NCBI GenBank assembly: GCA_943354005.1 | Contig: CALRBE010000001.1 | Coordinates: 147 to 64,146, forward strand | Direction: 5' to 3' | Length of the DNA: 64,000 bases | Source of the DNA: an uncultured Candidatus Saccharimonas sp. | Lineage (GTDB): Bacteria > Patescibacteriota > Saccharimonadia > Saccharimonadales > AWTP1-31 | Part shown: positions 19,794-42,285 of the stretch, piece after piece | How the letters are laid out: every line of letters starts with the position of its first letter | How positions within the stretch are numbered: position 1 is the first letter of the stretch | Position numbers and translations under genes: made by a program | Notes under the pieces: model-generated | Database searches by the model: none | Seen by the model: the letters and a program-made list of their open reading frames with translations, nothing else | What the model was told of the DNA's origin: nothing

Positions 19794-21015
19794 CTATAAC
19801 CCTCCACAAGTAATGCACATCGATCTTAATAGTTGCTTTGCGATTATTGAACAACAAGCTAACCCATTACTGCGAAATAAGCCGGTGGCTGTTGCCGCCT
19901 ATGACTCTCCAGGAGGTATGGTCATAGCGTCTTCATATGAAGCGAAAGCGCTGGGCATTAAGCTGGGCGTTAACGTCCGTGAGGCTCGACTCTTATCTCC
20001 AGACGTTCATGTTATGACGCCAGACCCTGAAAAGTACTTTAATGCCCATAAACGGTTTAAAGAAGTGCTCCTAAAGTACACGAGCGATGTGACTCCTAAA
20101 TCTGTCGATGAATTCGTTATCGACTTTCGGGGTTCACGGGCATTGCAGGCGGGACGCAGCCTTGAGGACATTGGTATGCAAATCAAACAGGACATTAAGG
20201 ATGCGCTGGGAGAATATGTAACAGTCAATATCGGCATTGGACCCAACCGCTTTCTTGCAAAACTAGCAGCAGGTCTAAATAAGCCAGACGGTATGGACCG
20301 AATAGACGGGAATAATCTCAGGGATGTATACGCCGGACTAGTACTAACTGATCTGCCCGGCATTAATGTCCGCTACGAAGCACGGCTTAATATTGCTGGC
20401 ATCTACACTCCAATCCAGTTTCTAGATGCTCCCGCTCTTATGCTCCGTAAACGAGTCTTTAAGAGTATTGTTGGATTCTATTGGCATTTGAGGCTCCACG
20501 GCTATGAAGTCGACACGATTAAATTTGGCCGAAAATCTTTCGGTCAGCAGTACGCACTTTCTAAGAAGACACGAGATAAGCAAGAACTTTCGCGTTTACT
20601 CATGAAGCTCTGTGAGAAAACAGGCAGAAGACTCCGAGGACAAAATTATATTGCATCCGGTATTCATCTATGGCTTGGATTTGAAAATAGAATGCACTGG
20701 TCCAAAGGCAAGCGAGTACGGGCCGATATCTATTCTACGCAGGACATTTACTTGCATGCTCAAAAACTTTTAAACGAAGTCCTGATACCTGCGCGAGTCA
20801 CCAACATTGGCATTACAGTATTTAACCTACGTCCATCTAATCCGCAGCAAATGGGCCTCTTTGACGATAGCCGGCTTGATACAAAATCGCTTGCTCGAGC
20901 TGCAGATATAGTAAATGACCGCTACGGTGAGTTTACGATCGTACCAGCCTCTATGGCTAATATGCAGGACGTTATTATTAAACGTGTGGCCTTTGGTAGC
21001 ACGAACGACCTATAA
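19774..21015 (+). CDS. dinB: DNA polymerase IV (Y-family)
   Basis: Motifs MHIDLNSCFA and SVDEFVID are present, with a little-finger region. The ATG at 19774 follows GAGGCGG; the ORF-track TTG at 19762 is less likely. Confidence 0.9.
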   Translation: MMEIPINYNPPQVMHIDLNSCFAIIEQQANPLLRNKPVAVAAYDSPGGMVIASSYEAKALGIKLGVNVREARLLSPDVHVMTPDPEKYFNAHKRFKEVLLKYTSDVTPKSVDEFVIDFRGSRALQAGRSLEDIGMQIKQDIKDALGEYVTVNIGIGPNRFLAKLAAGLNKPDGMDRIDGNNLRDVYAGLVLTDLPGINVRYEARLNIAGIYTPIQFLDAPALMLRKRVFKSIVGFYWHLRLHGYEVDTIKFGRKSFGQQYALSKKTRDKQELSRLLMKLCEKTGRRLRGQNYIASGIHLWLGFENRMHWSKGKRVRADIYSTQDIYLHAQKLLNEVLIPARVTNIGITVFNLRPSNPQQMGLFDDSRLDTKSLARAADIVNDRYGEFTIVPASMANMQDVIIKRVAFGSTNDL

Positions 21016-21034
21016 AGGATAGAATGGGAGCATT

Positions 21035-21463
21035 ATGAAACTACATATCGTTACCATTGGCAGCCCTAAACTAGACTACGCGCAAACAGGCTGGAAGCTC
21101 TACATAGATCGGCTACAGCGCTACCATACGGTACGTGTTACGCATATTGCAGACAACAAGAATGATAGTAATCACATAGAAGCTGCAGTCGGTTCAGGCT
21201 ATAGCGTTGCACTTGTTATTAATGGACCGCAAATGAACAGCGAAGCACTAGCAGCTTTCATCGATAAAAGAGCCAACGTCGCTCAGGAGCTCTGCTTTAT
21301 AATTGGTGGCCCTGATGGACTCCCACAAAAAGTAATTGACTCAGCCGACAGACAATGGGGATTGTCTGAACTGACATTCCCACACGACCTGGCTATGGTC
21401 ATACTTGCGGAAACATTGTACCGAGCAAGCACCATCTCAGCAGGACAACCGTATCACCATTAA
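21035..21463 (+). CDS. rlmH: 23S rRNA (pseudouridine1915-N3)-methyltransferase RlmH
   Basis: The SPOUT fold signature is present: MKLHIVTIGSPK...IIGGPDG...LSELTFPH. Confidence 0.9.
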   Translation: MKLHIVTIGSPKLDYAQTGWKLYIDRLQRYHTVRVTHIADNKNDSNHIEAAVGSGYSVALVINGPQMNSEALAAFIDKRANVAQELCFIIGGPDGLPQKVIDSADRQWGLSELTFPHDLAMVILAETLYRASTISAGQPYHH

Positions 21464-21711
21464 AATTTGTGTACGCCCTTAGAGTTCTGAGGATTAACTT
21501 TGGATAGACGAATCGAAAGGCGATAACGAAAAATTGGAATTGTCACGACTGCTATGTGGTGGAACAAGCTGTAGTTAACGTTTGGGTCAACGCTTAGTAA
21601 TGGCTTTTTGTGTCTCCGGTAATCTATATAGACGTATACCATTACAGCAAGAACGATAGCAATAAGAATGGCAAGTATAATAAATATTTTCATGATTGTC
21701 ATATACATCAT
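21460..21711 (-). CDS. small hypothetical membrane protein
   Basis: An 83-aa ORF with one strongly hydrophobic helix (IFIILAILIAIVLAVMVYVYI). Confidence 0.4.
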   Translation of the reverse strand: MMYMTIMKIFIILAILIAIVLAVMVYVYIDYRRHKKPLLSVDPNVNYSLFHHIAVVTIPIFRYRLSIRLSKVNPQNSKGVHKF

Positions 21712-21838
21712 ATCATCTGTTGTTATATTTTTTCATGTGATGCGATCAAAAAGTAAGCTAAAGAATAAATGGACGAGTATAATAAATAATGTTCGTATAA
21801 ACATAGACTATACTACTTATAAATAATAAAGGGATGAT

Positions 21839-23467
21839 ATGAGCACAGAGACAATACCGCGACCAGATATACAACCTATAAAACCTGAAGATATTAATCC
21901 AGAAGCCATGCATGCCCCCATTAACCCTGAGGTAGCCGAAGATGTAGGTGAAGTAGCAGTAGATTCGGCGGCCAATGCAGCAGAAGGTCCAAACAACCTA
22001 GAAGTTTCGGGTAGGGAACCCATTAACCCTGAGGTAGCCGAAGATGTAGGTGAAGTAGCTGTCAATTCTACACTCGATACATTACGGAGCCCTGAAGCTA
22101 TTGAGAAAAGAGTAGGAGAGGCCTTAGCCAAAGTTGACTTCGAAGAGACACCTCAAATGAAAGAGGCACTGACTCAATATTTTGAAACAAATTATGCTTT
22201 GGCATCAACAATAGATAAAAGTATCGCAGAAGATCCTAAGACTTTGTCTGAAGAGCAAAAAACCGAGCGACAGGCTGAACTACAGTCTATTATTGAAGCA
22301 AGTAAAGATGGTGGCCTAGACACTCAGCATCTGTATGAGGCTATGGTTGAATATGGCAACATGCCTCCTGCCATCACACGAATTGCCACACCATTACTTG
22401 CAAAAGTACGCCTCGAGAGAATAGCCAATCCAGAAGATTCAAAGCTTGAGTGCGTAGAGCAAATGCTGCTCGTACAATGCGGCATCTCTTTATTTAGTGA
22501 AGCGAGTGTTGGCGTTACTTCGGTTGGTGAAGAAGAGATTGAAATAGTCAAAGATATATCTTCTCGTGTAAAAAGTGTCGTTACAGAATCACCTCATTTT
22601 GATAGAACCGGAAAAGTTGTACATCCTAGTTTTATAAAAAGAAACATACCAATAGGTTTACTGGACAATCCTACTGTCTCAATAGATAAAGCGACTAAGC
22701 TTTTCTGGGAAGATGTTCGCCACTCGGGGCAACTTTTATTTCACAATTCTGGCGATATAAATAAGACACGGGGAAATGGTGAAATCCTAACTAGGAGAAT
22801 GCAACAACAAAGAAATAAAGAAGTAAAGCTACAAACTGCTGAATCTCTAAATGGTCATATACATTCACCTACGGTACATTGGAGCGAGAAATATGATCCA
22901 AGAGGTTATAAAGGAGGGGCTGGCACTGGAGGTACGATAGCTCTTCCTATTCGCGAAGTTATTGCTACAGCTCCATTCGCAAGAGATGCTGAATACGGCG
23001 TGCTCCGTATGAAACAGGATCGTAAAGCTCAAGTTATTGATCGCGTAACAAGCTCACGTAGTACAGGAGATATCTATGGAGGAGCTGCAGACTATCAAGG
23101 TGCACTGGGAATAGATCGCACATTTTATTCTTCTCCAATCGATTCAAGCCCTGGTGAGCCACTAGAGCAAGCCCCTGATGCCCACGGATTTAGACTATCA
23201 AAGAACGATTTCGCTATAGCAATAAGTGAACAAGAGTTACAGACTGCTCAACTGTCTGGAGTAGGGGAAAGCTTTCCCCAGATCGTAAGATTAGATCCTG
23301 AATCTCTTGATACAGGTATAGATGCCCTACAGCAAACTAGCATAGATCGTTATCCAGATGAATTCGTTATTCCTGTAAGAGCGGGTGGAGTATTTAACTT
23401 TTTCGTTCCAGACGATAGCGTAAGCCAAGGAAGACAGCATGCGCAATTTACTAAAGTTGTAGGTTAA
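21839..23467 (+). CDS. acidic orphan protein with N-terminal 34-aa duplication
   Basis: A 542-aa uninterrupted ORF preceded by AAGGGA. It has no TM helix, no signal peptide and no domain I recognise. Confidence 0.6.
   Translation: MSTETIPRPDIQPIKPEDINPEAMHAPINPEVAEDVGEVAVDSAANAAEGPNNLEVSGREPINPEVAEDVGEVAVNSTLDTLRSPEAIEKRVGEALAKVDFEETPQMKEALTQYFETNYALASTIDKSIAEDPKTLSEEQKTERQAELQSIIEASKDGGLDTQHLYEAMVEYGNMPPAITRIATPLLAKVRLERIANPEDSKLECVEQMLLVQCGISLFSEASVGVTSVGEEEIEIVKDISSRVKSVVTESPHFDRTGKVVHPSFIKRNIPIGLLDNPTVSIDKATKLFWEDVRHSGQLLFHNSGDINKTRGNGEILTRRMQQQRNKEVKLQTAESLNGHIHSPTVHWSEKYDPRGYKGGAGTGGTIALPIREVIATAPFARDAEYGVLRMKQDRKAQVIDRVTSSRSTGDIYGGAADYQGALGIDRTFYSSPIDSSPGEPLEQAPDAHGFRLSKNDFAIAISEQELQTAQLSGVGESFPQIVRLDPESLDTGIDALQQTSIDRYPDEFVIPVRAGGVFNFFVPDDSVSQGRQHAQFTKVVG
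21917..22059 (+). repeat. 41-bp perfect direct repeat, 102 bp offset (in frame)
   Basis: CCCATTAACCCTGAGGTAGCCGAAGATGTAGGTGAAGTAGC occurs at 21917-21957 and 22019-22059. Each copy encodes PINPEVAEDVGEVA. Confidence 0.9.
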
Positions 23468-23512
23468 CAATCAGTAATAATAATTATTGGAAAAATTTAT
23501 ATATATTTTGTT
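23429..23512. repeat. left copy of ~80-bp direct repeat (3' end of the 542-aa ORF plus downstream)
   Basis: GGAAGACAGCATGCGCAATTTACTAAAGTTGTAGGTTAACAATCAGTAATAATAATTATTGG... recurs at 28480-28561 with a few substitutions and one 1-nt indel. Confidence 0.85.
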
Positions 23513-23532
23513 ATAAATATTTATTAACTGAA

Positions 23533-24627
23533 TTAGCTTGGCATATAGGTAGCTGTAACGTTCTCGATTTTTCCAAGAGCCAACAAATTGTCTCCCGTTC
23601 GAGCCATCAAAACTTGGTCAGGAATTAATAGGGGTCTTAGTTGTCCAGGTACCTCAGCACCGCCACCTGTATAATCTTGCCAACCTCGACTAATTACGAA
23701 TCGATCTTGGAAGCGTAATGGTACTGACTTGTTTTCTGCTGAACTATTAAGTGCAAGAAGTTGGTTTTGATTCCACTCAGAGGAAGTGTAAAACTTACGA
23801 AGAAGCTGATTAACCGAATCTTCTTCTAAGCACCCGGCCAGATCAAGCTTGAATTGCTCGGTTGGTTTAGTCTGTAAGAAACTCTGAAGAGTTCTTTGCT
23901 CTCCAATGCCTCGAACCGAATGCCAGCCGTTGCCAAGATTGGTTTCTTGCAAGAAAACTTCGCCACTATCATCGATATAGGCAAGTTGTCCATTTTCTAC
24001 ATAACAATCTAGTTTAAGTTTATCTGCAGGTAACTTTAGCCCCGCCGGAACATCAATGGTTTGTGGGTTGTCTATTGTAGTAATAAAGGCTAATCCTCCA
24101 TCTATTACCAGACTTTGTAGTGGTAAGTTCTTATTTTGCTTGACCATTGAAGTCGGTCGAAGCAGCACAAAACCTCTTTTAACTCTCGAAATGGACTCTG
24201 GCGACATCAAGTCATCAATATATTCTGATGATTTGGTCTGTGACCGTTCAATAAGTCGGTCTGTTTCGCTGGGTACCTGATTCTGGCCAGCCGCCTCTCT
24301 GGTCGCCCGACTAAGCCTAGCCCCAGGTTTTTTTGTAGATACAATACTCTGTCTTATGCCACTTATTGTATCTGGTGTTATTGAATCGTAAGATTGCTGA
24401 ATCCGTTGAAGTCGATCAGATTGTGCCGACGAAGAGCCAGCCTTATCAGGATGAAGTTGGATCTGAAAGGCTCGATACAATCCCCTAACTGCAACAATCA
24501 GGGCCTCTGGCTGCAATTCTGTAGCCAACTCACGGGTAATACCCAAAACCTCTAAAGGGCTGGGCTGCCTTGCTGCTTGTGCGATTTCATTAAGTGCCTC
24601 GCGAATCGGGTCTTCCTGTTTAGGCAT
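23533..24627 (-). CDS. J-domain protein with uncharacterised C-terminal domain
   Basis: The N-terminus reads PLEVLGITRELATELQPEALIVAVRGLYRAFQIQLHPDKAGSSSAQSDRLQRIQQSYDSI, i.e. helix II, HPD, helix III. The remaining ~270 aa are unassigned. Confidence 0.7.
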   Translation of the reverse strand: MPKQEDPIREALNEIAQAARQPSPLEVLGITRELATELQPEALIVAVRGLYRAFQIQLHPDKAGSSSAQSDRLQRIQQSYDSITPDTISGIRQSIVSTKKPGARLSRATREAAGQNQVPSETDRLIERSQTKSSEYIDDLMSPESISRVKRGFVLLRPTSMVKQNKNLPLQSLVIDGGLAFITTIDNPQTIDVPAGLKLPADKLKLDCYVENGQLAYIDDSGEVFLQETNLGNGWHSVRGIGEQRTLQSFLQTKPTEQFKLDLAGCLEEDSVNQLLRKFYTSSEWNQNQLLALNSSAENKSVPLRFQDRFVISRGWQDYTGGGAEVPGQLRPLLIPDQVLMARTGDNLLALGKIENVTATYMPS

Positions 24628-24628
24628 A

Positions 24629-25264
24629 TTAAAACACCCGTCCAGTTGTTATATCCCGCAAACTTGCACCTTCACGGATCAGAGCAAGTAGCTCTTCTGC
24701 ACCACTGTGCCTAAATGAAAGTTCACGGCGTTCTTGTATAATTTCTAAAGCATCGTCTAGCTGATTTAGATCTTGTTCGTCGTCCAAACTAAATCCTAGT
24801 ATGCGGTAAATCTCATCAGTCTGACTAAGGGTAATGCCCAGTGTATCCTTAACGTCATATAGAAAAGCACAGCCTTCAGCAGTGTATCCATGCTCCTTTA
24901 TGTATTTAGTAACCTCGCTCATTTTAGGGTTTCGTTCGACTATCAAAGAAGTTAATTCAAAAACATCCTTCATAGTTGGCAAACGTCCAGCATTATAAAG
25001 ATCGATTATACGATCAATTCCTGCTTCTAGGCGTTTCGCGCCAATTAACTTTTCTTCGTCTCCGCTATATTGAGCTTCAATTAGCTCATTACCAATAAAA
25101 GCCGCTACTAATTCTGCATCGGTACCCATAACCATTAAACCATTCCAGTCAGTGACCTGTTGGCCCTCGGCATTGGTAGTTACTGGGATCAACGATAATA
25201 GATCTCTGGGAACTATCGCTTGTACAGGAAGATCGCTTGTTTGTGTTTCGTATTCGTGTGTCAT
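24629..25264 (-). CDS. acidic orphan protein, immediately upstream of the J-domain gene
   Basis: A 211-aa ORF whose stop at 24629-24631 lies 1 nt from the J-domain gene start at 24627. Confidence 0.55.
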   Translation of the reverse strand: MTHEYETQTSDLPVQAIVPRDLLSLIPVTTNAEGQQVTDWNGLMVMGTDAELVAAFIGNELIEAQYSGDEEKLIGAKRLEAGIDRIIDLYNAGRLPTMKDVFELTSLIVERNPKMSEVTKYIKEHGYTAEGCAFLYDVKDTLGITLSQTDEIYRILGFSLDDEQDLNQLDDALEIIQERRELSFRHSGAEELLALIREGASLRDITTGRVF

Positions 25265-25382
25265 ATGACTCCTTAATTAAAATGTCAGTGAACAATAGCT
25301 TTAATATTTATAATGTGCAAACTATTTATGACGAAGTTATACTTAACAGATGTAAATTAACATTATATTTGTCAATATTTAT

Positions 25383-25410
25383 TTGACTATATATTTATAT
25401 AAGGTATAAT
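25383..25410 (+). promoter_or_regulatory. sigma-70-type promoter, TTGACT-N16-TATAAT
   Basis: TTGACT is at 25383-25388 and TATAAT at 25405-25410. The ATG of the TrmB-like gene starts at 25417, about where transcription should begin. Confidence 0.5.
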
Positions 25411-25416
25411 TCAAAT

Positions 25417-26151
25417 ATGATTTCATCACTTAAAGACTTAGGTATTAACGATACACAGCAGCTTTGTTACTTTGAACTTGTTAAAAGTGGCCCTGTGAGC
25501 GCAACCGAATTAGCCAGTAGTATAGATCTCAAGCGAACGACAGTACATATGGCATTAGAAAAACTTACCGAACTAGGACTTGTCGAAAAGACTGCCGAAA
25601 AGGGAGTATGGCAAGCCAATAACCCCACCGAGCTAAAAAGACTTCTAGCACAAAGACAAAACGAATTAAAACAATCGGCACAAGAACTACAGTCCAGCCT
25701 ACCGGCTATAATTTCTCGCTATCGACTGAGTCATCAACAACCAGGCGTTCTTCATATAGAAGGCAAGAACGGAATTAAGTATCTTCACGATGACATTATT
25801 CGTAATAATAAAGAAGTCCTAATTTTTACAAGCTCAAAAGACCGTGATAATCCAGAAATCGCTCTAGCAATCGATGCCCAAATAACTCGGCAAGAAATTG
25901 CCGGAATAAAAGTCAGGGCTCTATCGTCAGTCACGTTAAAGGACGACAAGACACTAATCTCAATCAGCAATAAGCGAATTACCGAAAGATTCTTTGGCGA
26001 CGAACAACAGTCTTCCCAAACAATTATCTACGGAGACAACGTTGCTATAAGTACATTCGGTGAAACAATGTACACAACGATTATCACTTCACCTGAGATA
26101 GCCGATTCTTATAGAAGTATGTTCGAAAACCAATGGATTTTAGCCATCTAA
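25417..26151 (+). CDS. TrmB-family winged-helix transcriptional regulator
   Basis: The N-terminal wHTH is YFELVKSGPVSATELASSIDLKRTTVHMALEKLTELGLVEK. The C-terminal part is a TrmB-like effector-type domain. Confidence 0.7.
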   Translation: MISSLKDLGINDTQQLCYFELVKSGPVSATELASSIDLKRTTVHMALEKLTELGLVEKTAEKGVWQANNPTELKRLLAQRQNELKQSAQELQSSLPAIISRYRLSHQQPGVLHIEGKNGIKYLHDDIIRNNKEVLIFTSSKDRDNPEIALAIDAQITRQEIAGIKVRALSSVTLKDDKTLISISNKRITERFFGDEQQSSQTIIYGDNVAISTFGETMYTTIITSPEIADSYRSMFENQWILAI

Positions 26152-26192
26152 CTACCAAACTGTTCATTTGCTTCTTGTATAAGTTCGGGCGT

Positions 26193-28430
26193 TTAAGTGA
26201 CTGGTGGTGCTTTATTCAATTTCTCCATAACATCGAAAATTCTAGTAATACGCTTTAGTAGTCTTCCGAAGCTCTCTGGATTTGCCGATTCTGGTAAGAA
26301 TTCACTTTTAATATGGTTATTTGGAAGCTCATCGACCGATTCGTCTTCAATTCGAGCCATTTCGGCAGCACCGGCACTAATAACTGTAGCCAATAAGTAT
26401 CCAATTGGTTCTTTTGCGGGCTTTCTAGTGCTCCCAATATCAAAACTAAGTTCGTGCTGGCCATAGTTTTCTAGGTCTAGACGCATACTAAAAGTGCGCA
26501 TTCTTTTACCTTTTTTGTTGTTAGCTAAAAAGGTATTTTCATCGAATCTATCACCTAGTAGTTCTCTCAAAGCTGGCACCATATTTCTAGCATCTTCAAT
26601 AGATATTGTTCTAGTCAGACCTAATCTGGCCTCTCCCTCTGTGTCTGCTTCGTTCCGAATGCTAATTAGGGTCCTACTTCTACCGTTTGATAGATTTTGG
26701 TCACCTTCGTTACTAGTTGCAAATGGAAAATCTTTTATCGGTTTGCGCTCAAAGGTAGCCCGATTATCCTTTGCCTGGGAATCATTTAGTATTACCCGGC
26801 TGGGAATCTCGCATATAATACTGGCTTCATTTAGGGCGTCAGTAACAATCGCTAGACTAAGAATTACTTGATCAAGACTAGTTACAGTTGATTCTGCCGT
26901 TGTTGGATGACCTTCAGCGTCATAGCCTGTCACAAGTACGGCACTGGCTGCGCCACGCTGTAAAAGCGAGTGCATAGCGGCAATTTGCTCGGTCAATCTT
27001 AGTTGAATACTCTTATAAATACCGTCGGTTATTTTCTTTTCTTCTGGGAGATTATTCATTTCGTCCTGAGTCAAATATTCGTCCATAAATACGGGACCAT
27101 AAACCAGCCTAATAGAATAGTTTCCAGCGTTTTTTGTAGCCCGTAAAATATTGGACATGACCTGGTGCATATCTTTTGTGTCGGCTACTTCCATGATGTC
27201 GACTAGCATTTCTGCCAAAATACCTTGAGTTCTTGGCATTTTCATTAGTTCAACAAAATTACGCATAAACTCAGGGTGTTGATCATCAACCATTTGGCTA
27301 ACATCTTGAAGGCGTTTAAAATTTGCTACAGGGTCGTTTTTTAGATAATCTATCATCTCTTTATCGATTTCTTTACCAGTGCTGCCGTGATAACCCCTGA
27401 TTAGGTATGAGTAACGGCTCTCTTGTTCTTCGTACTGAATCGGTAATAGTTTATGTCTGGCATCAACCAGGTGATCTATTGCGACAATATCATCTGGAGT
27501 CATTGATTGACTTTCAAATATCTGACTGAAGGCCCTGATATAAGTTGGGTCATCCAGATTGCTAATTGCGCCAAATGATTGACCGTAGTAGTTCATGAAA
27601 TAAAATCCGTCATCCAGAATGTCCGATTCATCTCGCAGCGGAGCAATGCCCAATTCATCTCGCAGCGGAGCAATAATGTATTCGACATCAGTAGTTTTTG
27701 GCATAGAAGCAGAAATATCGGCCATAATCTTCATAGCTTTGATAGAACAAATTGTCTGCATATCTAGGGCAAAATTGTAAACGTCGATATCTTCGGTTTG
27801 TGTGGCGAAACCTGCTAGTTTATCGTTAAGTTTTTGAGCGTACATTGCAGCATGAAGACGTATTGGATCAGTTGCGATTCTTGTGCTTACGTCGACCAAT
27901 CTCTTCTGATGAGCCAGACTTTCTTGTTCATCTATACCTTTTTCAATTCTTACCCTAAGTCGGCTAATTAGAATGTCCGTGGTTAACCCTTCAGCTATCC
28001 TAATTTCAGGCATCTCCTGTAAACCATGTTGAATTGCCAATGAGGTGCTTTCAACTTCTAGAAGGTCACAATAAGTAGTAAGGGCCGCCATAGTCACAAC
28101 TTGTTCTTCAGCATTAAGAGACCCCATGTACTCAAAACTTCTGGCTAGCATTTGAGAATCACGAAACTCCAGAAGCTTGCTCCGATCAGCATCTGGATGC
28201 TCGTGAACAAATACTGCAATATCCTCAGCAATCAAGGGGTCAATGACTTCTTTTAGTGTATCGGGCAACAAAGGATGACTAGGTTGATTGTCGCCAAATT
28301 CCCAAGCGGGCCTAAATATATCGTCCTGAAGAGTAAAATCTGAAATACTTCCGTCCAGCTCACGAGGTAGTTTAAGCGTATGCTGATCACCCTGGAGTTT
28401 ATCTATATTAGAGTTGTCCATTTTGATCAT
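26193..28430 (-). CDS. large acidic orphan protein
   Basis: A 745-aa uninterrupted ORF with no TM helix, no signal peptide and no recognisable motif. Confidence 0.6.
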   Translation of the reverse strand: MIKMDNSNIDKLQGDQHTLKLPRELDGSISDFTLQDDIFRPAWEFGDNQPSHPLLPDTLKEVIDPLIAEDIAVFVHEHPDADRSKLLEFRDSQMLARSFEYMGSLNAEEQVVTMAALTTYCDLLEVESTSLAIQHGLQEMPEIRIAEGLTTDILISRLRVRIEKGIDEQESLAHQKRLVDVSTRIATDPIRLHAAMYAQKLNDKLAGFATQTEDIDVYNFALDMQTICSIKAMKIMADISASMPKTTDVEYIIAPLRDELGIAPLRDESDILDDGFYFMNYYGQSFGAISNLDDPTYIRAFSQIFESQSMTPDDIVAIDHLVDARHKLLPIQYEEQESRYSYLIRGYHGSTGKEIDKEMIDYLKNDPVANFKRLQDVSQMVDDQHPEFMRNFVELMKMPRTQGILAEMLVDIMEVADTKDMHQVMSNILRATKNAGNYSIRLVYGPVFMDEYLTQDEMNNLPEEKKITDGIYKSIQLRLTEQIAAMHSLLQRGAASAVLVTGYDAEGHPTTAESTVTSLDQVILSLAIVTDALNEASIICEIPSRVILNDSQAKDNRATFERKPIKDFPFATSNEGDQNLSNGRSRTLISIRNEADTEGEARLGLTRTISIEDARNMVPALRELLGDRFDENTFLANNKKGKRMRTFSMRLDLENYGQHELSFDIGSTRKPAKEPIGYLLATVISAGAAEMARIEDESVDELPNNHIKSEFLPESANPESFGRLLKRITRIFDVMEKLNKAPPVT
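27626..27674 (-). repeat. 22-bp perfect tandem duplication at 27-bp (9-codon) offset
   Basis: ATTCATCTCGCAGCGGAGCAAT occurs at 27626-27647 and 27653-27674. It encodes IAPLRDELG-IAPLRDESD. Confidence 0.85.
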
Positions 28431-28479
28431 TATAGCCTAACATATAGGAAAAGTTTAACTTGAAATAATGACCTCATTC

Positions 28480-28561
28480 GGAAGACAGCATGCGCTATTT
28501 ACTAAGTTGTAGGGTAGCAATCAGTAATAATAATTATTAGAAATTATTTATATATTTTCTT
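28480..28561. repeat. right copy of ~80-bp direct repeat (degenerate 3'-end remnant)
   Basis: GGAAGACAGCATGCGCTATTTACTAAGTTGTAGGGTAGCAATCAGTAATAATAATTATTAG... still reads GRQHALFTKL-stop. The left copy reads GRQHAQFTKVVG-stop. Confidence 0.85.
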
Positions 28562-28637
28562 GCTTTCTTTTAATATCAATAATTGATGTATACTTTTTAG
28601 GAAGGTAAGCGTAAAAAATTACACTTTTATTAAAATT

Positions 28638-29858
28638 ATGAAAAATCAAAAAGATATTAAGCGAAATAAAAAATCTCCAGTAGGATCATCCAAAAAAATA
28701 GTTAAGAGCAACAAGGAAGGAAGTAAGTCGTTCCTGGCAACGTGGCTTCTTTCATACTTTCTTGGCAATTTTGGAGTTGACCGTTTCTATCTGGGTAAGA
28801 AGAAGACTGGAGTTCTCAAGCTAATAACTTTAGGTGGCCTTGGTTTCTGGACATTAATCGACTTCCTTATAACAGGTCTTGGTACGCGTCGGGATAGTAA
28901 TGGATTGATACTTGAGGGTTTTGCAAAGTATCGTAACAGAATACGTTTTTTTACTTTTATTTTTATAATTATCAATATAGCTTACCTGGCATTTATTGGT
29001 TTATACATTATTCCTCAAAGGCAAATGATCATAAATGATACCAATCGTGAAAATGATATAAAGGGTATTTCTTCATCAATTAGAAATTTTGAGATAAATT
29101 TAAGCGCTTTTTTGCCAGTTGCTATTAGTACAGGAAACGAACCAAACGTAGTTAGGTTTTGCGATACTTCTAATTGTCAAAATGCCTTTTCCGAAATTGA
29201 ACTCCAAACCTATAAGCCCGAAAACGTTAGCCTACAAAAGTATAGTCCAAACTTACAAGTACCTGACTTAGACAAAGTTTATGTAGTTAATGATGCAGAG
29301 TGTAACAGTACCAATAACGGACTCGGGGGCGTAAAAGTTCATTCGGTAGCAATTCTGTCAAAGTCCGAAAAAAGCTTCAATGGCTCTAAAACAAGCTGTA
29401 CTACAGTTGCATCGGAAAAGTTTATCAATATTAACGCATCTCCTTTCTGTGGGGCAATGCCCACTGCTGGCATGTCGGATACGGCAGTCAAGTATCTTCA
29501 AGCCCTTGTAGACTTTAACAAGGGAAGAGAACGAGTCGAAAAAGATTACGTGGATTCTGGAAGTAATGGTGTGACCGTGCAAATGATAACCGATCAGTTA
29601 GTTGCCGATAAGCGACTGATTATAAGTTTGCAAAATATAACATTCCCTAAAGACTTACAAAACCAAGCAAATAATGCAGTTATTGCAATCCAGAAATACG
29701 ATTCGTTGATACTGAAAGAATCCGCGAACGTTGATGCCGTACCACAATCACTGTTCGCTGAAATTACAGTGGCTCGAACAAACTTATTTGCATCCTTAGA
29801 AAATCTACGAACAGAGCTTAATTTACCTGAATCAACCTGTAAGTACATAATTCCTTAG
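28638..29858 (+). CDS. TM2 domain-containing membrane protein with large C-terminal domain
   Basis: WLLSYFLGNFGVDRFYLGKKKTGVLKLITLGGLGFWTLIDFLI is a TM2 domain signature. There is a third TM helix, then a ~280-aa Cys-containing extracytoplasmic part. Confidence 0.7.
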   Translation: MKNQKDIKRNKKSPVGSSKKIVKSNKEGSKSFLATWLLSYFLGNFGVDRFYLGKKKTGVLKLITLGGLGFWTLIDFLITGLGTRRDSNGLILEGFAKYRNRIRFFTFIFIIINIAYLAFIGLYIIPQRQMIINDTNRENDIKGISSSIRNFEINLSAFLPVAISTGNEPNVVRFCDTSNCQNAFSEIELQTYKPENVSLQKYSPNLQVPDLDKVYVVNDAECNSTNNGLGGVKVHSVAILSKSEKSFNGSKTSCTTVASEKFININASPFCGAMPTAGMSDTAVKYLQALVDFNKGRERVEKDYVDSGSNGVTVQMITDQLVADKRLIISLQNITFPKDLQNQANNAVIAIQKYDSLILKESANVDAVPQSLFAEITVARTNLFASLENLRTELNLPESTCKYIIP

Positions 29859-30032
29859 TAGATTAATTAAAGTTATAAATAGCAAACATAGAATTTACTT
29901 TAGAAGTCGTATTAATCGGATTCTGAAAAATCAAATATAACAAGATTAAGAAGATGATCGCAAAAATTTGATTACTGGCTAATTCCAAATTTTGTAAGGG
30001 ATTGAGTCAATGTAGTCTACCTATTGGCCATT

Positions 30033-30108
30033 TGGTGACCCCGGCGGGATTCGAACCCGCGATCTTCTGGATGAGAACCAGATATCCTAACCACTAGACG
30101 ACGGGGCC
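30033..30108 (-). tRNA. tRNA-Glu (anticodon CTC), CCA encoded
   Basis: The reverse complement reads GGCCCCGTCGTCTAGTGGTTAGGATATCTGGTTCTCATCCAGAAGATCGCGGGTTCGAATCCCGCCGGGGTCACCA. The anticodon stem is TCTGG/CCAGA with loop TTCTCAT. Confidence 0.9.
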
Positions 30109-30216
30109 ATTGTCGTATGTGAACGTGCAAATTCTAACAGATTTACAGAGATACGTCCAGATCAATAACAGTGGTTGTGACTATCACATGAGTCTGTCAT
30201 AATTGCTTATGGTAAT

Positions 30217-31686
30217 ATGCCAAATTCAGTAAAACCTACCACAAATCCACCCAGTTCTGCCGAAAAGATAGGGTGGGTACTATTCGTGTTTATAAGCCAA
30301 TTTGTGGTAATTTTCTTGCTGTTTAATATTGGTTCAAAGGGTAGCAGTACTGCAATAGGCATAATCTTTGCATTATTTGCGGCTATATTGTTATCCGCAA
30401 TAAGCTTAGGTATTTCACAAGCTCGGCTTTCTCTTCCTGGTCAAACAACTTCTAGAAAGACATCAGACAAGAGCCCGGTGCATTCGATCTTAAGCGCCCC
30501 ACAGAACCAATCAGATAATATTTTGGAATCCGTTTCGGATGGTATTGTGGTCACTGACGAAACTGGCAAAATAACAATGCTAAACAATAGTGCTGCACAA
30601 ATTGCTGGATGGAATCCCCAAGATGCCCTAAACCTTGACTACCATTCAGTATTTGCATTCTCTGACACTAAAGGTAACCCATATACAGAGCAGCAAAACC
30701 CTTTTAAGAAAGTCTTTGATACCGGTAAGCCGATTAAGGATGATGCTGCTTTTGTAACGACACATAGTAGTAAGAAAAAAATAGCTGTGAGCATGAGTGT
30801 ATCTCCAATGCTAGATGAGATGGGAGCAGTAGTTGGTACGGTTTCTATTGTTCGTGACGTAAGTGAGGAACGGGAAGCTGCTCGGCAACGTGCTGAGTTC
30901 ATAAGCACTGCAAGTCACGAAATGCGTACTCCAGTTGCAGCAATAGAAGGATACTTATCCCTTGCACTTAACCCTAACGTTTCCAAAGTAGACGATAAAG
31001 CAAAATCATACCTTACCAAAGCTCATGATGCAACACGACACCTTGGAGATCTCTTCCAAGACCTTTTGACCAGTTCCAAAGCAGATGACGGCAGGCTTAC
31101 AAACAACCCTGAAATTATTGAAGTAGGATCTTTCATATCGAAACTAACTGAAGACCTTCGTTTCGTTGCTCAAAAGAAAAGTCTTACCGTCGAGTACGTT
31201 CTCGGTACAACTGGAGCCTCTGTAGGTAGTTCTAGTAAGTTAGACGGGAGCACTAAGGTTATTCAACCACTCTACAATATCTACGCCGATCCAGAACGAC
31301 TTCGTGAAGTTATTACAAACTTGTACGACAATGCAGTTAAATACACCAATTCAGGAAAGATATCCATCGGTCTAACGGGAGATACTAACGTCGTACAAAT
31401 ATATGTCAAGGATACTGGAGTAGGTATGGCGCCAGAAGACGTACCACATCTATTTCAGAAGTTCTACCGTCTAGATAATAGCTCTACTCGTACAAGCGGG
31501 GGAACTGGGCTTGGGCTTTATATATCACGCAAAATTATTGAGCTATATAATGGTCAAATCTGGGCCGAGAGTGAACTGGGCAAGGGAAGTACGTTCTTTA
31601 TCAACCTACCTCGACTTAGCAACCAGCGGTACGCTGAGCTTAGTACTAAAATGACCCCAACCGCAGGACAAATCAGCAAAAAGTGA
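30217..31686 (+). CDS. sensor histidine kinase (2 TM, PAS, HisKA, HATPase_c)
   Basis: The H-box is FISTASHEMRTPV, the N-box is NLYDNAVKYT, G1 is DTGVGM and G2 is GGTGLGLYI. Confidence 0.9.
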   Translation: MPNSVKPTTNPPSSAEKIGWVLFVFISQFVVIFLLFNIGSKGSSTAIGIIFALFAAILLSAISLGISQARLSLPGQTTSRKTSDKSPVHSILSAPQNQSDNILESVSDGIVVTDETGKITMLNNSAAQIAGWNPQDALNLDYHSVFAFSDTKGNPYTEQQNPFKKVFDTGKPIKDDAAFVTTHSSKKKIAVSMSVSPMLDEMGAVVGTVSIVRDVSEEREAARQRAEFISTASHEMRTPVAAIEGYLSLALNPNVSKVDDKAKSYLTKAHDATRHLGDLFQDLLTSSKADDGRLTNNPEIIEVGSFISKLTEDLRFVAQKKSLTVEYVLGTTGASVGSSSKLDGSTKVIQPLYNIYADPERLREVITNLYDNAVKYTNSGKISIGLTGDTNVVQIYVKDTGVGMAPEDVPHLFQKFYRLDNSSTRTSGGTGLGLYISRKIIELYNGQIWAESELGKGSTFFINLPRLSNQRYAELSTKMTPTAGQISKK

Positions 31687-31749
31687 AATTCATTACAAGC
31701 CAGTTATGCTACAATGTAATTAAAATAAGCATATAAGGGAATACACTAC

Positions 31750-32571
31750 ATGGCAAAAATAATGCTCGTCGAAGACGATACAAATCTCTTAGAAATATAT
31801 GGCGCACGACTTCTTGCAGAAGGCTATGAAGTAGTATCGGCTAAAGATGGAGAAGAAGCATTAGCTATGGCAGTCAAAGAAAAGCCAGACCTAATAATTA
31901 GCGACATAATGATGCCAAAGATCAGTGGCTTTGATATGCTAGATATCCTTCGTAGTACACCTGAGACTAAGAATACTAAAGTAATTATGATGACCGCCCT
32001 TAACCAAGCAGAAGATAAAGAACGTGCTGACAAGCTTGGTGCAGATCGTTACTTAGTAAAATCTCAAGTTACCCTAGAGGATGTAGCGCAGGCAACTAAA
32101 GAAGTTCTTGGAGATTTAGCGCCAGCACCAGCTGAGCCAGTGACGCCAGCACCTGCTGAGCCTGCTGAGAAAGCTGAACCAGCTGCGCCAGCACCTGCTG
32201 AGCCTGCTGAGAAAGCTGAACCAGCTGAGCCAGCACCTGCTGAGCCTGCTGAGCCAGTGACGCCAGAAGTACTTACACCAGCGACTGAAACGGCTCAATC
32301 AGTACCCGCCGAAATGCTACCGCCCGTTAAAACTGATTCCAACAATTCTTCTCCAGGACATACAAAAGTAATTAAACCAATTAATGACATTAATGAGCGG
32401 AGCGACGGCCTGAAGAAACTCATAGCTGAGGCGGAGGCGGAGGATAAAGCTCAGACATCCTCAATGCCTGAAGTCTCACCTCCAATGGTTCCTGCTATGC
32501 CCACACCAGCTGAGCCAGTTCAAATTCCTGTAATAGTGCCACCAGTTACGCCACCTACTCCTCAGGCCTAA
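31750..32571 (+). CDS. response regulator receiver with Pro/Ala/Glu-rich tail and no recognisable output domain
   Basis: The REC residues are canonical: LVEDD, IISDIMMP, MMTA, LVKS. About 150 aa of PAPAEPAEKAE-type low complexity follow. Confidence 0.85.
   Translation: MAKIMLVEDDTNLLEIYGARLLAEGYEVVSAKDGEEALAMAVKEKPDLIISDIMMPKISGFDMLDILRSTPETKNTKVIMMTALNQAEDKERADKLGADRYLVKSQVTLEDVAQATKEVLGDLAPAPAEPVTPAPAEPAEKAEPAAPAPAEPAEKAEPAEPAPAEPAEPVTPEVLTPATETAQSVPAEMLPPVKTDSNNSSPGHTKVIKPINDINERSDGLKKLIAEAEAEDKAQTSSMPEVSPPMVPAMPTPAEPVQIPVIVPPVTPPTPQA
32146..32266 (+). repeat. 42-bp tandem repeat (about 2.6 copies) encoding PAPAEPAEKAEPAx
   Basis: CCAGCACCTGCTGAGCCTGCTGAGAAAGCTGAACCAGCTG(C/A)G occurs at 32146-32187 and 32188-32229. 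A partial third copy follows. Confidence 0.85.
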
Positions 32572-40148: not shown

Positions 40149-40171
40149 AAACAGTTAAAAAAGGATACTCC

Positions 40172-40690
40172 ATGTCCGAAATCCAAAACGATACCAGTTT
40201 ACCAATTTTTGAAGTACAAGAACGCCGGCTGCTTATTAGTTCTGAAATGCAGCTTAGCTCCGCAGTTCAGGATGGAGAAGATAGGTTTTTGCGTCCAGTT
40301 TACACATCTGGTCCAATCAATAGTGACCTTGAGTCTAGACTTGAAAGTGCACAGCATGAATTTAAGCTTCTGGCATGTCAAACGCAGACCGAAGTAGTCC
40401 CTCATAGGTTTGGACTATATCCAGCAGACAAAGTTCTAGAAAACTACTATAGAGCCCATGGTCAAAATGGCCTCATACCAAGCGGATACATTCTAGCAGC
40501 AGAAGTAAAGATAATACCGCACGAAGATTCAAGGATGCTAAAATTACGTCCCCATTCAATAAGGCAGGGGATTAAGCTATATAGACAGACATCAAATAAA
40601 CTAGCTAACTTAAGCGCTAGACAGTTTATACAAAACAGTGAAACTGGAGCTTGGACTTACCTGGGCATTGAACCACGATTACGCGGGTAA
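40172..40690 (+). CDS. hypothetical protein
   Basis: A 172-aa ORF preceded by AAGGA. I recognise no domain. Its last ~10 codons lie in the left copy of a direct repeat. Confidence 0.5.
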   Translation: MSEIQNDTSLPIFEVQERRLLISSEMQLSSAVQDGEDRFLRPVYTSGPINSDLESRLESAQHEFKLLACQTQTEVVPHRFGLYPADKVLENYYRAHGQNGLIPSGYILAAEVKIIPHEDSRMLKLRPHSIRQGIKLYRQTSNKLANLSARQFIQNSETGAWTYLGIEPRLRG

Positions 40691-40717
40691 AAACTATAAG
40701 AACATTTTACGATTACT
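40660..40717. repeat. left copy of ~58-bp direct repeat (3' end of the 172-aa ORF plus downstream)
   Basis: Cores GAACCACGATTACGCGG (40670-40686) and GAACATTTTACGA (40700-40712) recur at 41599-41615 and 41629-41641 with identical 30-nt spacing. Confidence 0.8.
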
Positions 40718-40789
40718 CAACAAACATAAAACTTAAGAGCGAGTAATATGAGAAAAATAGTTGGAACTAAATAAGCATAAGATTGATTG

Positions 40790-40798
40790 TGCTATAAT
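40790..40798 (+). promoter_or_regulatory. extended -10 promoter element TGCTATAAT
   Basis: TGCTATAAT lies at 40790-40798, 43 nt upstream of the ATG at 40841. I found no convincing -35. Confidence 0.4.
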
Positions 40799-40840
40799 TT
40801 TAAAAAGAAATACCAATATCAACATAAGTTAGGGAACTCT

Positions 40841-41578
40841 ATGTATAAGCTACTAAAATACATTCTTGTATTTACTCTTTTTATAAGCGTACTTGCTAAA
40901 AGCTTTAGCAGAGGAGATTTAATAGCTGCCCCTTTAATAGTTCTATTAGCTGTCCTTTATTTAGATAGAGGAATTATGAAAAAAGCTAAGTTAAGTAATG
41001 AACGTAATTCTGTGGTTAATTCATACGAAACAAAGAAACATACTATACTAAAACTCGTTACATGGACATTAGTAGTATTAGCTTTGTTAATATTTCCAGT
41101 TACAGTATTAGATATACCTGCCGATGCTCCTTTGATACTACTTATAATTGTTATGGCTGTCCTTTATTTAGATAAAAGCATTATAAAAACCTCTATTTTT
41201 AATAGCAAACGTAATTCTATGGTTAATTCATACGAAAAGATGAAACATACCATACTAAAACTCGTTATATGGACATTAATAGTATTAGCTTTGTTAACAT
41301 TCCTAGTTACAGGATTAAATCTAGGGTCCGGAGTGCCTTTGATAAAATCCTTAGGTTCGGGATTAAATCTACAGTCCGGAGTTATTTTAGTAGGGGACTA
41401 TCGCACTCAGAATCTAGAGTCCGGAGTTATTTTAGTAGATAACGATCGCATTAAGACTCTATCGGTATGGGGCTTAATTTTTGTCATGGCAGTGTACTAT
41501 GAAATTCAATTAAGAAAAAAATATAAGAATGACCCTAGCAAATCAAAAACCAAAGATCAGACTGCAATAAATAAATAA
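40841..41578 (+). CDS. multi-pass membrane protein with internal ~70-aa tandem duplication
   Basis: The module SNERNSVVNSYETKKHTILKLVTWTLVVLALLIF... repeats as SKRNSMVNSYEKMKHTILKLVIWTLIVLALLTF... I prefer the ATG at 40841, since the ORF-track TTG at 40787 overlaps the promoter element. Confidence 0.6.
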   Translation: MYKLLKYILVFTLFISVLAKSFSRGDLIAAPLIVLLAVLYLDRGIMKKAKLSNERNSVVNSYETKKHTILKLVTWTLVVLALLIFPVTVLDIPADAPLILLIIVMAVLYLDKSIIKTSIFNSKRNSMVNSYEKMKHTILKLVIWTLIVLALLTFLVTGLNLGSGVPLIKSLGSGLNLQSGVILVGDYRTQNLESGVILVDNDRIKTLSVWGLIFVMAVYYEIQLRKKYKNDPSKSKTKDQTAINK

Positions 41579-41589
41579 TCCACTCAACT

Positions 41590-41646
41590 CCTGGATATGA
41601 ACCACGATTACGCGGATAAATACTTTACGAACATTTTACGAACACT
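41590..41646. repeat. right copy of ~58-bp direct repeat
   Basis: CCTGGATATGAACCACGATTACGCGGATAAATACTTTACGAACATTTTACGAACACT here compares with CCTGGGCATTGAACCACGATTACGCGGGTAAAAACTATAAGAACATTTTACGATTACT at 40660. Confidence 0.8.
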
Positions 41647-41960: not shown

Positions 41961-42285
41961 TCCTAAGATCCATATCAACTATGCACATGTCGCAAAAAGT
42001 TTTCCACAACGTTATTTGCATTATTTGACTTTTGTTGCTTTATATATGCTTTTATACATGTCCTTTTATATATTCATTACCCCTCTTCTATTTGACTTCT
42101 ACCCTGTTTCATTATGGTTTTATACTAATTTGTAACACGCACTGAATTTACCAATTGAACAAAATACGAACATTCTTTATGAAAAAAGGAGGGGGAGGAG
42201 AAGACCAAAACATACGGCCTTAATGCGATCTCTCCCTTGCTTAATTGCAGTTTCGGATTGTGTGTTCTATTTCTACGCTTTATAT

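Follow-up and report, generated by a model that had tools for sequence, protein, structure and literature searches.

How did a block of four genes come to lie between two copies of another gene's 3′ end, in a region where no recombinase gene is found? We address this question in a 64-kb window, the whole stretch of Saccharibacterial DNA that was analyzed. An earlier note had described an ~80-bp direct repeat at 23429 and 28480 and interpreted the four genes between its copies as an insertion with a duplicated gene end at its borders, a reading that our analysis upholds. In our best explanation, to which we assign a probability of about 0.6, the repeat is the mark of a duplicative insertion, by which a horizontally acquired module of four genes entered at the 3′ end of a gene for a 542-aa protein. 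The features of this first locus are as follows.

21839..23467, + strand: target gene, an ORF for a 542-aa protein of a Saccharimonadia-only family
23429..23510, + strand: left repeat copy DR-L, the functional gene end (..GRQHAQFTKVVG, TAA stop) and ~43 nt 3′ of it
23468..30030, no strand: lineage-specific island of 6,563 bp, filling the slot from the 542-aa gene's stop to the tRNA-Glu 3′ end
23533..24627, − strand: module gene 1, a 364-aa protein with a J-domain-like N-terminus (LEVLGI..LYRAFQxQLHPDK) that includes the HPD block
24629..25264, − strand: module gene 2, a 211-aa protein with a 46% identical homologue at the same position in contig L025
25417..26151, + strand: module gene 3, a TrmB-like winged-helix regulator of 244 aa (PF01978, E = 1.4e-10; L025 homologue 56% identical)
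26193..28430, − strand: module gene 4, a 745-aa protein with a conserved C-terminal domain
28480..28562, + strand: right repeat copy DR-R, a putative displaced and frameshifted gene end
28563..28637, + strand: leader preceding the TM2 gene, with a homologous leader after the single repeat copy in L026/L027
28638..29858, + strand: TM2-domain membrane protein of 406 aa (PF05154, E = 2e-17)
30033..30108, − strand: tRNA-Glu(CTC), conserved, anchoring the variable slot on its right (ARAGORN and Rfam; present in L005-L008)

DR-L and DR-R form an imperfect direct repeat of 82 and 83 nt that is 89% identical by gapped local alignment, where 75 of 84 columns agree and the differences are six substitutions and three one-nucleotide indels. 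The alignment scores 117 against a shuffle maximum of 37 (0/300 shuffles equal it), and BLASTN pairs the copies over 80 columns at 90% identity (E = 7.6e-23). In each copy the similarity begins abruptly at GGAAGACAGCATGCGC, and the sequences to the left of this border are unrelated, as had been described; a previous count by eye of about four substitutions and one 1-nt indel in the first ~60 bp comes close to the three substitutions and one 1-nt deletion found in the first 60 columns. DR-L takes in the final 39 nt of the 542-aa ORF, stop included, and continues for ~43 nt downstream. DR-R does translate as GRQHALFTKL-stop, and restoring its 1-nt deletion yields ..VVG-TAG. The 542-aa protein has 19 homologues, all from Saccharibacteria/Saccharimonadales where the source gives a name, and the C-terminal GRxxAxFTKV motif is kept across them; the protein contains no Pfam domain. 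The locus recurs, base for base, in three further contigs from separate assemblies (ENA k141, 279 kb; Logan, 8.8 kb; an NCBI MAG), and consequently it is no assembly artefact. All four contigs with this allele are identical, and we saw no excised circle, deletion allele or polymorphism among them.

Comparison with relatives indicates which copy was displaced. Contigs L026 and L027 carry a single repeat copy that is continuous with the leader following DR-R in the window (28567-28619 aligns with L026 1933-2003; 0/500 shuffles score as high), whereas the right flank of DR-L has no likeness to that leader (168/500 shuffles are as good). Because DR-R is frameshifted and colinear with this ancestral downstream leader, it is best read as a displaced, decaying gene end, much as had been suggested from the window's sequence. 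The L026/L027 lineage shares only 76% protein identity and has a different downstream gene; a homologue of the leader in L007 precedes a truncated gene. Both window copies contain CATGCGC, a GTAGG Gly codon and an ~20-nt AT-rich insert, characters present in no relative or in one lineage only. Since they share these lineage-specific characters, DR-L and DR-R appear to be sisters derived from a single resident sequence, probably duplicated after the split from an L026-like allele. The earlier proposal that an incoming element supplied a replacement gene end is therefore not supported at this locus.

The repeat-bracketed segment lies within a larger variable unit. Homology to L005, L006, L007, L008, L011 and L012 ends at 23462-23467 and restarts at 30031-30033, and the island between these points contains the four module genes, DR-R and the TM2 gene. 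Five relatives lack all of 23468-30030, so that 26-42 bp separate the 542-aa gene from the tRNA-Glu gene, and the sixth carries an unrelated 1-kb filler in the slot. The empty site predicted by the earlier note, with the 542-aa gene, one repeat copy and the TM2 gene in succession, was not found among the relatives examined; the five are also without the TM2 gene, and what varies is the whole 6.56 kb up to tRNA-Glu(CTC). The tRNA-Glu gene at 30033-30108 had been missed in that first reading. A 25-mer search allowing up to three mismatches found no duplicated tRNA-Glu fragment in the island and matched the gene itself only. The TM2 gene, AT-rich at 37% GC, is inside the island and outside the bracketed segment; it is missing from the relatives examined, and neither JGI metagenomes nor viral contigs yielded a relative of it.

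The listing of the four genes between the repeat copies proved correct, and their descriptions needed revision. Pfam DnaJ matches the 364-aa protein below threshold (E = 0.012, 16 bits), though the HPD motif and its surroundings are kept in an L025 homologue at 46% identity; AF2 prediction from the single sequence gave no usable model (pLDDT 32). The 211-aa and 745-aa proteins, formerly called orphans, both have relatives: the first a homologue in L025, as well as a 207-aa gene where it would sit in a JGI contig, and the second six distant relatives in an exhaustive search, where a word-indexed search had returned the self-match only. The 745-aa protein has a conserved C-terminal domain (~residues 583-730) with invariant R, R.D.E, S.DIG and H, and it matched nothing in Pfam, PDB sequences or folds. 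The TrmB-like regulator gene is divergently transcribed from module genes 1 and 2. In L025 the homologues are 31%, 56%, 46% and 46% identical with gene order preserved, and the JGI contig has the same order and gene sizes as the window. On these comparisons the four genes are a conserved syntenic module, now seen in three copies (window, L025, JGI contig) within three unrelated neighbourhoods with no integrase nearby. The entire module is missing from close relatives. Its GC3 of 0.32-0.35 is host-like (host 0.35 +/- 0.03), and a foreign origin consequently gains no independent support from composition.

As had been claimed, no integrase, transposase or relaxase is detectable in the segment, and none is detectable in the rest of the 64-kb window. 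No ORF of the window has a reverse transcriptase domain, no conjugation or phage genes were found, and terminal inverted repeats are absent.

The window holds a second insertion, at 40660/41590, which together with locus 1 makes up the sole large indels in ~36 kb compared with relatives. Its features are given below.

40172..40690, + strand: target gene, 172-aa protein
40660..40717, + strand: left repeat copy, the present gene end, with five differences found in no empty-site allele
40713..41597, + strand: insert of 885 bp with one membrane-protein ORF (263 aa)
41590..41646, + strand: right repeat copy, identical to the L023 empty-site allele

The architecture is the same as at locus 1, in agreement with the earlier note. 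The insert is missing from ten relatives' contigs (L015-L024), which have single-copy empty sites, nine of them inspected base by base, and the alignments of the single copy to the two window copies overlap by 44 bp. The right copy and the 60 nt after it equal the L023 allele exactly in a comparison of 110 nt, while the five private differences of the left copy all lie 3′ of an 18-nt identical core. Here, the idea of a replacement end brought in by the insert is better supported. The ORF (40787-41578) is AT-rich (31% GC) with internal tandem repeats. The repeats of the two loci have no motif in common.

These results suggest the following course of events. The insertion site would lie inside a hypervariable cargo slot, bounded by the 542-aa gene and the convergent tRNA-Glu gene. 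Convergent 3′ ends are places that tolerate insertions. Before insertion, the order was presumably that of L026/L027: the gene, its end with the ~43-nt spacer, the leader and a downstream membrane-protein gene. The insertion would have duplicated the 39-nt gene end and the spacer, after which DR-L went on terminating the 542-aa gene and DR-R, still attached to the native leader, probably became a pseudo-end that decayed by one substitution, a frameshift and small indels. The most likely route, we infer, needs no recombinase gene and corresponds to "insertion with long target duplication" (Nobusato et al. 2000, as cited in Furuta et al. 2010, PMC2853133). It could have proceeded by a Campbell-type single crossover of circular or concatemeric DNA that carried its own short homologue of the gene end, or by repair of a staggered break, and the natural competence of Saccharibacteria and their RecA-type recombination would favour either; alternatively, flanking homologous recombination may have imported the duplication ready-made from a close relative outside the sample. 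All three routes, by crossover, by break repair and by import, fit the data, and the same process would have acted at 40660/41590.

Published insertions of this kind, which have no mobility genes and lie between unique direct repeats of more than 30 bp, come mostly from naturally competent species; their cargo is restriction-modification gene units, and their hosts include H. pylori, H. influenzae, Neisseria and Campylobacter (PMC2853133). Natural competence is also known in Saccharibacteria, which integrate DNA through homologous recombination (PMC10633639). The published cases and ours share a few-kb block between such repeats (46 bp to over 400 bp in PMC2853133), a related genome whose one copy aligns with both repeats and, in H. 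influenzae, a 46-bp repeat overlapping the 3′ end of the gene before it. Ours carry no restriction-modification genes: the cargo of locus 1 is a four-gene module, and that of locus 2 a single membrane-protein gene. They also differ in their host, a Saccharibacterium (CPR); the copies, at 89% identity, are more diverged than most, and locus 1 is without a sampled exact pre-insertion allele. A recombinase-less precedent is the small microcin H47 island of E. coli, which is flanked by extensive imperfect direct repeats and excises and integrates, recombination being possible in several segments of identity (PMC3191183, PMC5426353). Its RecA-independent excision and integration were shown experimentally, whereas our case is read from sequence. 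Its attachment sequence is widespread among strains; our repeat includes a gene end.

A competing explanation, which we regard as unlikely, is a decayed or non-autonomous CIME-like site-specific element that targets the 542-aa gene's 3′ end and carries a surrogate end, its repeats being attL and attR and its tyrosine or serine recombinase acting in trans or encoded on a partner element since lost. The architecture is that of streptococcal ICEs and IMEs in the 3′ ends of fda, rpsI and rpmG, and of cargo-only CIMEs that keep att sites, whose repeats include a protein-gene 3′ end and which themselves lack integrase, relaxase and conjugation genes (PMC7563491). The mismatches at both loci are also compatible with attL/attR hybrids after one crossover each, at repeat positions 25-35 in locus 1, where DR-L is outgroup-like in its left half and DR-R in its right, and in the first 18 nt in locus 2, where the right copy is identical to an empty-site allele and the left copy's differences fall beyond the core. 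The slot also adjoins a tRNA gene, a classical island neighbourhood; as in tRNA-adjacent tyrosine-recombinase islands, it abuts the tRNA 3′ end and its contents differ between strains, but here the integrase and the duplicated tRNA 3′ fragment are absent and the repeat derives from the protein gene opposite. CIMEs, moreover, descend from ICEs/IMEs, share their att sites and were found in tandem with them, whereas no ICE, IME, recombinase domain, conjugation gene or phage gene is seen here. Two unrelated repeats make a single site-specific enzyme for both loci unlikely, and no flanking repeat was found around the L025 module, so the repeats are not part of the module; together these points argue against a dedicated site-specific integrative element. 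The lineage-specific characters in both locus 1 copies are expected of a target duplication, and would fit a foreign attP only with a near-identical strain as its source.

The frameshifted pseudo-end could instead be the last remnant of a paralogous 542-aa gene, left by segmental or tandem duplication and near-total deletion with no insertion at all, and the L025 module, of the same kind, does contain tandem paralogues with duplicated upstream sequence. This reading is already disfavoured, and we consider it very improbable: the duplicated coding part is just 39 nt with an abrupt border, a second gene copy occurs in 0/9 related contigs examined, the single-copy L026/L027 allele runs its gene end straight into the same leader, the four intervening genes are a foreign-looking conserved module known in other contexts, and the empty sites at locus 2 are not predicted by paralogue decay. 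A dispersed intergenic repeat family, or a chance AT-rich match unrelated to the segment's origin, is effectively refuted for the window and retains almost no probability. It would draw on the AT-rich noncoding half of the repeat, with its 10-12-bp palindrome (AATAATTATT), and on two exact matches to its 21-mer core in JGI metagenomes. These matches are chance, however, sharing only 21-25 nt with unrelated AT-rich DNA; no viral matches were found. The 16-mer and 21-mer cores each occur twice in the window against 0.01-0.04 expected, related loci hold no further copies, the coding half of the repeat is the conserved end of one particular gene, and the alignment score is far beyond every shuffle.

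For this uncultured Saccharibacteria (TM7) genome, a MAG, duplicative insertion would mean that genes are gained by a known but mechanistically unsolved way, without an integrase, and twice within one 64-kb window.

A gapped local alignment locates an imperfect direct repeat of 82/83 nt at 23429–23510 (DR-L, the left copy and functional gene end) and 28480–28562 (DR-R, the right copy and pseudo gene end). The alignment is identical in 75 of 84 columns, with 6 substitutions and 3 single-base indels, and its score of 117 compares with a best of 37 across 300 shuffles; BLASTN of DR-L against DR-R returned 90% identity (E = 7.6e-23). The earlier note's claim of a repeat around a four-gene segment is thereby borne out. 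The similarity starts abruptly at GGAAGACAGCATGCGC in both copies, and their left flanks are unrelated. DR-L comprises the last 39 nt of a 542-aa ORF, including the stop codon, together with about 43 nt 3′ of it, and DR-R translates as GRQHALFTKL-stop because of a 1-nt deletion. The 4.97 kb between them carry ORFs of 364, 211, 244 and 745 aa. The structure is base-for-base identical on three other contigs from different assemblers, and the repeat is therefore no assembly artefact; the MAG carrying this sequence (GCA_943358135.1) belongs to the Saccharibacteria (TM7, CPR). We also considered a dispersed repeat family or a chance match, and rejected both. Diagnostic sub-sequences of the repeat occur exactly twice each in the window (chance expectation 0.01–0.04), the repeat is unique within the 64-kb window and all fetched loci, and the metagenome and viral collections contain no further copies (two 21-mer matches in metagenomes are attributable to chance, and the viral collection gave none).

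The features that define the locus are as follows.

21839–23467, plus strand: the 542-aa target gene
23468–30030, 6,563 bp: the lineage-specific unit, containing the four module genes, DR-R and the TM2 gene
30033–30108, minus strand: tRNA-Glu(CTC), its 3′ end towards the 542-aa gene; overlooked in the earlier note

The 542-aa protein has 19 detectable homologues, and all source-named ones are Saccharibacteria or Saccharimonadales. No Pfam domain was found in these homologues, and the C-terminal GRxxAxFTKV motif, which is the duplicated part, is kept across the family. We compared the orthologous locus on nine related contigs, which represent six allele types. In L005, L006, L008, L011 and L012, the 542-aa orthologues are 72–91% identical (for L008, 70% over the best tblastn segment), and only 26–42 bp separate the gene's stop codon from the 3′ end of tRNA-Glu. 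The window's homology to its relatives ends at 23462–23467 and restarts at 30031–30033; therefore, the variable unit is the whole 6,563 bp. On contig L007, the same slot holds a different 1-kb filler, and the gene-to-tRNA slot is a hot spot with alternative contents. Consequently, the insertion bracketed by a duplicated gene end stands as first described, but the boundaries of the variable region do not, since five relatives lack the entire region including the TM2 gene. The predicted empty site, with the 542-aa gene, one repeat copy and the TM2 gene in succession, was not found among the related contigs examined. A 16-nt repeat flanking the TM2 gene (28635 and 29920) is not significant (56 of 1000 shuffles).

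Several further variations were seen at this locus. The N-terminal part of the 542-aa gene contains a 102-bp tandem duplication (21917–21966 and 22019–22068; PINPEVAEDVGEVAV..), which occurs in the window, L006 and L011 and is single in L005, L007, L008 and L012; it is thus the target gene itself that is polymorphic in length. Across 21000–23467 and 30031–32150, the nearest relative among L005–L012 shifts by segment: the body of the 542-aa gene shares 96% identity with L005, and the flanks are nearer to L006 and L007, with up to 96.6% identity on the right side. These shifts indicate that the lineages concerned frequently exchange DNA by homologous recombination. At the left junction of the L007 filler, positions 2708–2719 repeat without mismatch 12 nt from the 5′ part of tRNA-Glu (3753–3764), followed by weaker similarity to the tRNA flank (1 of 1000 shuffles), and this filler may represent a third target-duplicating insertion in this slot, now degraded. 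To the right of the tRNA, a response-regulator gene (31750–32571) contains 42-nt repeats (32130–32288) that encode an Ala/Pro/Glu-rich linker; its orthologues in relatives range from 252 to 308 aa.

Single-copy alleles on two contigs, L026 and L027 (76% protein identity), inform the history of the two copies, with the caveat that they come from a more distant lineage than the five slot-empty relatives and have a downstream gene that differs from the window's. Their gene ends in ..VVA and a TAG stop, followed by one spacer copy that runs on into a leader homologous to the sequence 3′ of DR-R. Window positions 28483–28619 align with L026 1860–2003, and the part beyond the repeat (28567–28619) scores 41 by itself (best of 500 shuffles, 33). 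The right flank of DR-L shows no similarity to the L026 leader, its score being reached in 168 of 500 shuffles. When the 1-nt deletion is restored, DR-R ends in ..VVG-TAG, with the stop codon as in L026. DR-R is thus still joined to the ancestral downstream sequence, and the most plausible reading of this frameshifted copy is that it is the original gene end, now displaced, in agreement with the earlier note. The downstream gene of L026 encodes a different membrane protein, and L007 also has this gene in truncated form, preceded by the same leader.

DR-L and DR-R share characters that are combined in no relative: CATGCGC, found among relatives only in L005, a GTAGG Gly codon unique to the window, and some 20 nt of AT-rich sequence that are inserted in comparison with L026. 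Because of these shared characters, the two copies appear to be sister sequences, duplicated after the split from an L026-like allele. Their divergence of about 11% suggests that the event was not recent.

We now turn to the inserted genes. A word-indexed search with the 745-aa protein found only itself, and exhaustive searching with HMMER added six distant relatives, for two of which the genomic context is known. A JGI contig carries genes for 706 aa, TrmB (on the opposite strand), 207 aa and 367 aa, flanked by an AAA-kinase-like gene on one side and an rpoD-like gene on the other. Contig L025 (GCA_964469435.1) has the same gene order as the window, with identities of 31% (745-aa), 56% (TrmB-like), 46% (211-aa) and 46% (364-aa). 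Thus, the three supposed orphans are not orphans, and together with the TrmB-like regulator they make up a conserved four-gene module in three unrelated neighbourhoods. No integrase lies beside the module in any of the three neighbourhoods, no repeat flanks it in L025, and the module is absent from close relatives of the window. In L025, the 745-aa family is represented by a tandem pair of paralogues (639 and 644 aa), and a 37-bp sequence recurs upstream of both (6749–6785 and 8809–8845); the large module gene was therefore duplicated in that genome.

For the function of the module's proteins, PADLOC, PHROGs and PDB sequences gave no matches. The J-domain of the 364-aa protein lies below the Pfam threshold (E = 0.012), and a LEVLGI..LYRAFQxQLHPD block is kept between the window and L025 homologues, so the assignment is plausible; the single-sequence AF2 model of this protein was unusable (pLDDT 32). 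The 745-aa protein has an invariant R / R.D.E / S.DIG / H signature, and Foldseek of its mediocre AF2 model (7-sequence alignment, pLDDT 56) against PDB gave a best E of 0.46. Its gene contains a 27-nt tandem duplication (27618–27671), which repeats the peptide APLRDE(L/S)(G/D)I. No compositional sign of a foreign origin is detectable in the module, whose base composition is host-like; only the TM2 gene and the 263-aa gene of the second locus are AT-rich. Viral contigs contain no relatives of the 745-aa, 364-aa and TM2 proteins, and JGI metagenomes contain no relatives of the TM2 protein.

The architecture recurs at a second locus, as had been proposed, where a 172-aa gene (40172–40690) ends in a repeat of 49–57 nt (40660–40717 and 41590–41646). 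The 885-bp insert (0.89 kb) carries one AT-rich ORF for a 263-aa membrane protein. An empty site is found on ten contigs of a 97%-identical lineage (L015–L024) and on one contig from an 87% lineage (L028). When window positions 40000–40712 and those from 41598 onward are aligned to the relative, the two alignments overlap by 44 bp, which means that only one repeat copy exists there. The right copy and the next 60 nt (110 nt compared) are identical to the L023 allele. The left copy, which is the present gene end, has five differences that are absent from nine inspected empty alleles, all of them 3′ of an 18-nt identical core. A reasonable reading of this pattern is that the left copy is an incoming 'replacement end', its statistics being marginal with only 49 nt. 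These two insertions are the only large indels in the approximately 36 kb compared with relatives. Between the 172-aa gene with its insert and a 301-aa minus-strand gene, there is a non-coding stretch of about 640 nt (41650–42285), which is 95–97% conserved in L015–L024, recognisable in L028 and without a match in Rfam even at E <= 1; it is a candidate new RNA or regulatory region.

We compared both inserts to known kinds of mobile DNA. Integrase, transposase, relaxase and reverse-transcriptase domains are absent from the segment and from every sizeable ORF of the 64-kb window, in keeping with the earlier description of an integrase-less segment, and Pfam, PHROGs and PADLOC show no mobility domains in either insert. 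A RecO gene is present in the window. An insertion sequence or transposon was rejected, with no transposase, no terminal inverted repeats at the segment ends and a duplication of 82 nt. A tRNA-targeting island was rejected for the window, as the 3′ 25-mer of tRNA-Glu has no second copy (up to 3 mismatches) and no BLAST match in the window. The template and variable repeat pair of a diversity-generating retroelement is excluded because the differences between the copies are not adenine-specific (A/T, T/G, A/G and G/A, plus indels); moreover, the repeat extends beyond the stop codon and the window has no reverse transcriptase.

Among described phenomena, 'insertion with long target duplication' comes closest; it is reported for restriction-modification units, mostly in naturally competent bacteria (PMC2853133). 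Furuta et al. 2010 required direct repeats longer than 30 bp, a relative with one copy that aligns to both, an insert shorter than 20 kb without mobility genes and a repeat unique in the genome (PMC2853133). Both repeats here exceed 30 bp (82/83 nt and 49–57 nt), and both inserts (4.97 kb and 0.89 kb) lack mobility domains. Clean single-copy empty sites are found on ten contigs at the second locus; at the first, the single copy comes from the distant L026/L027 with their different downstream gene. As in H. influenzae cases, where the repeats overlap a gene's 3′ end (PMC2853133), gene ends are duplicated. The cases differ in host, here a CPR bacterium, and in cargo, as no methyltransferase or nuclease domains and no PADLOC matches were found that would make it a restriction-modification system, there being no PADLOC matches at all; such cargo was a screening criterion in that study and not a mechanistic one (PMC2853133).

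These comparisons establish that a transferable module was inserted duplicatively where a gene ends, nested within a variable slot and without a recombinase gene, and that an insertion of this kind recurs at a second site. The insertion is of a known but mechanistically unsolved kind, and what is new here is the CPR host and the cargo other than restriction-modification genes. Three routes all fit the data: a Campbell-type single crossover, in which circular or concatemeric DNA would carry a short stretch homologous to the gene end; staggered-break repair; or import of a ready-made structure via flanking homology. Natural competence is established for Saccharibacteria, and incoming DNA enters their genomes through homologous recombination (PMC10633639). 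Two observations favour a target-derived duplication: the copies at the first locus are sister sequences, and no repeats surround the L025 module. In E. coli, the recombinase-less H47 island shows that excision and integration can proceed through long imperfect repeats even where the island encodes no enzyme for it (PMC3191183, PMC5426353).

The alternative is a site-specific element resembling CIMEs (PMC7563491), with the repeats as its att sites. The hybrid-like mismatch patterns of the repeats speak for it. However, neither the segment nor the 64-kb window encodes a recombinase, no att sequence recurs with the module on L025, and the repeats of the two loci share no common recombination motif. 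We consider this alternative unlikely, and other mechanisms are better supported than a dedicated integrative element. The earlier note holds for a recurrent, integrase-less insertion bracketed by a duplicated gene end, and had to be corrected on the limits of the variable region, the predicted empty site and the 'orphans'. Beyond duplicative insertion, one may ask whether Saccharibacteria recurrently gain genes as cassettes placed precisely at convergent-gene 3′ ends by way of a short homologous 'surrogate gene end', without an element-encoded recombinase. We regard this as quite improbable; its driver could be RecA and the competence apparatus, or else an enzyme not yet recognised, for instance the conserved 745-aa protein. 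If true, long imperfect repeats would be functional attachment sites, and the minimal mobile cassettes that bear them would be a new class among CPR bacteria.

Elsewhere in the window, a KwaB-like protein (PF16162, E = 8e-8; 52760–53770, minus strand) adjoins an NYN-domain protein (52178–52750, minus strand), and this pair of genes may serve a Kiwa-related defence in a Saccharibacterium.

CPR bacteria, including Saccharibacteria, have tiny genomes with few classical mobile elements, and their strains differ in small cargo blocks. The window holds two clean, independently documented gene gains at 3′ ends, each with a duplication of 50–80 nt and no recombinase gene. Together, they widen the unexplained 'long target duplication' mode of insertion to cargo other than restriction-modification genes and to a CPR lineage that is naturally competent, where the mechanism is experimentally testable because Saccharibacteria are now transformable. 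They also make three 'orphans' part of a conserved four-gene module (J-domain-like, 211-aa, TrmB-like and 745-aa proteins) that moves between contexts as a unit and is a candidate for functional study.
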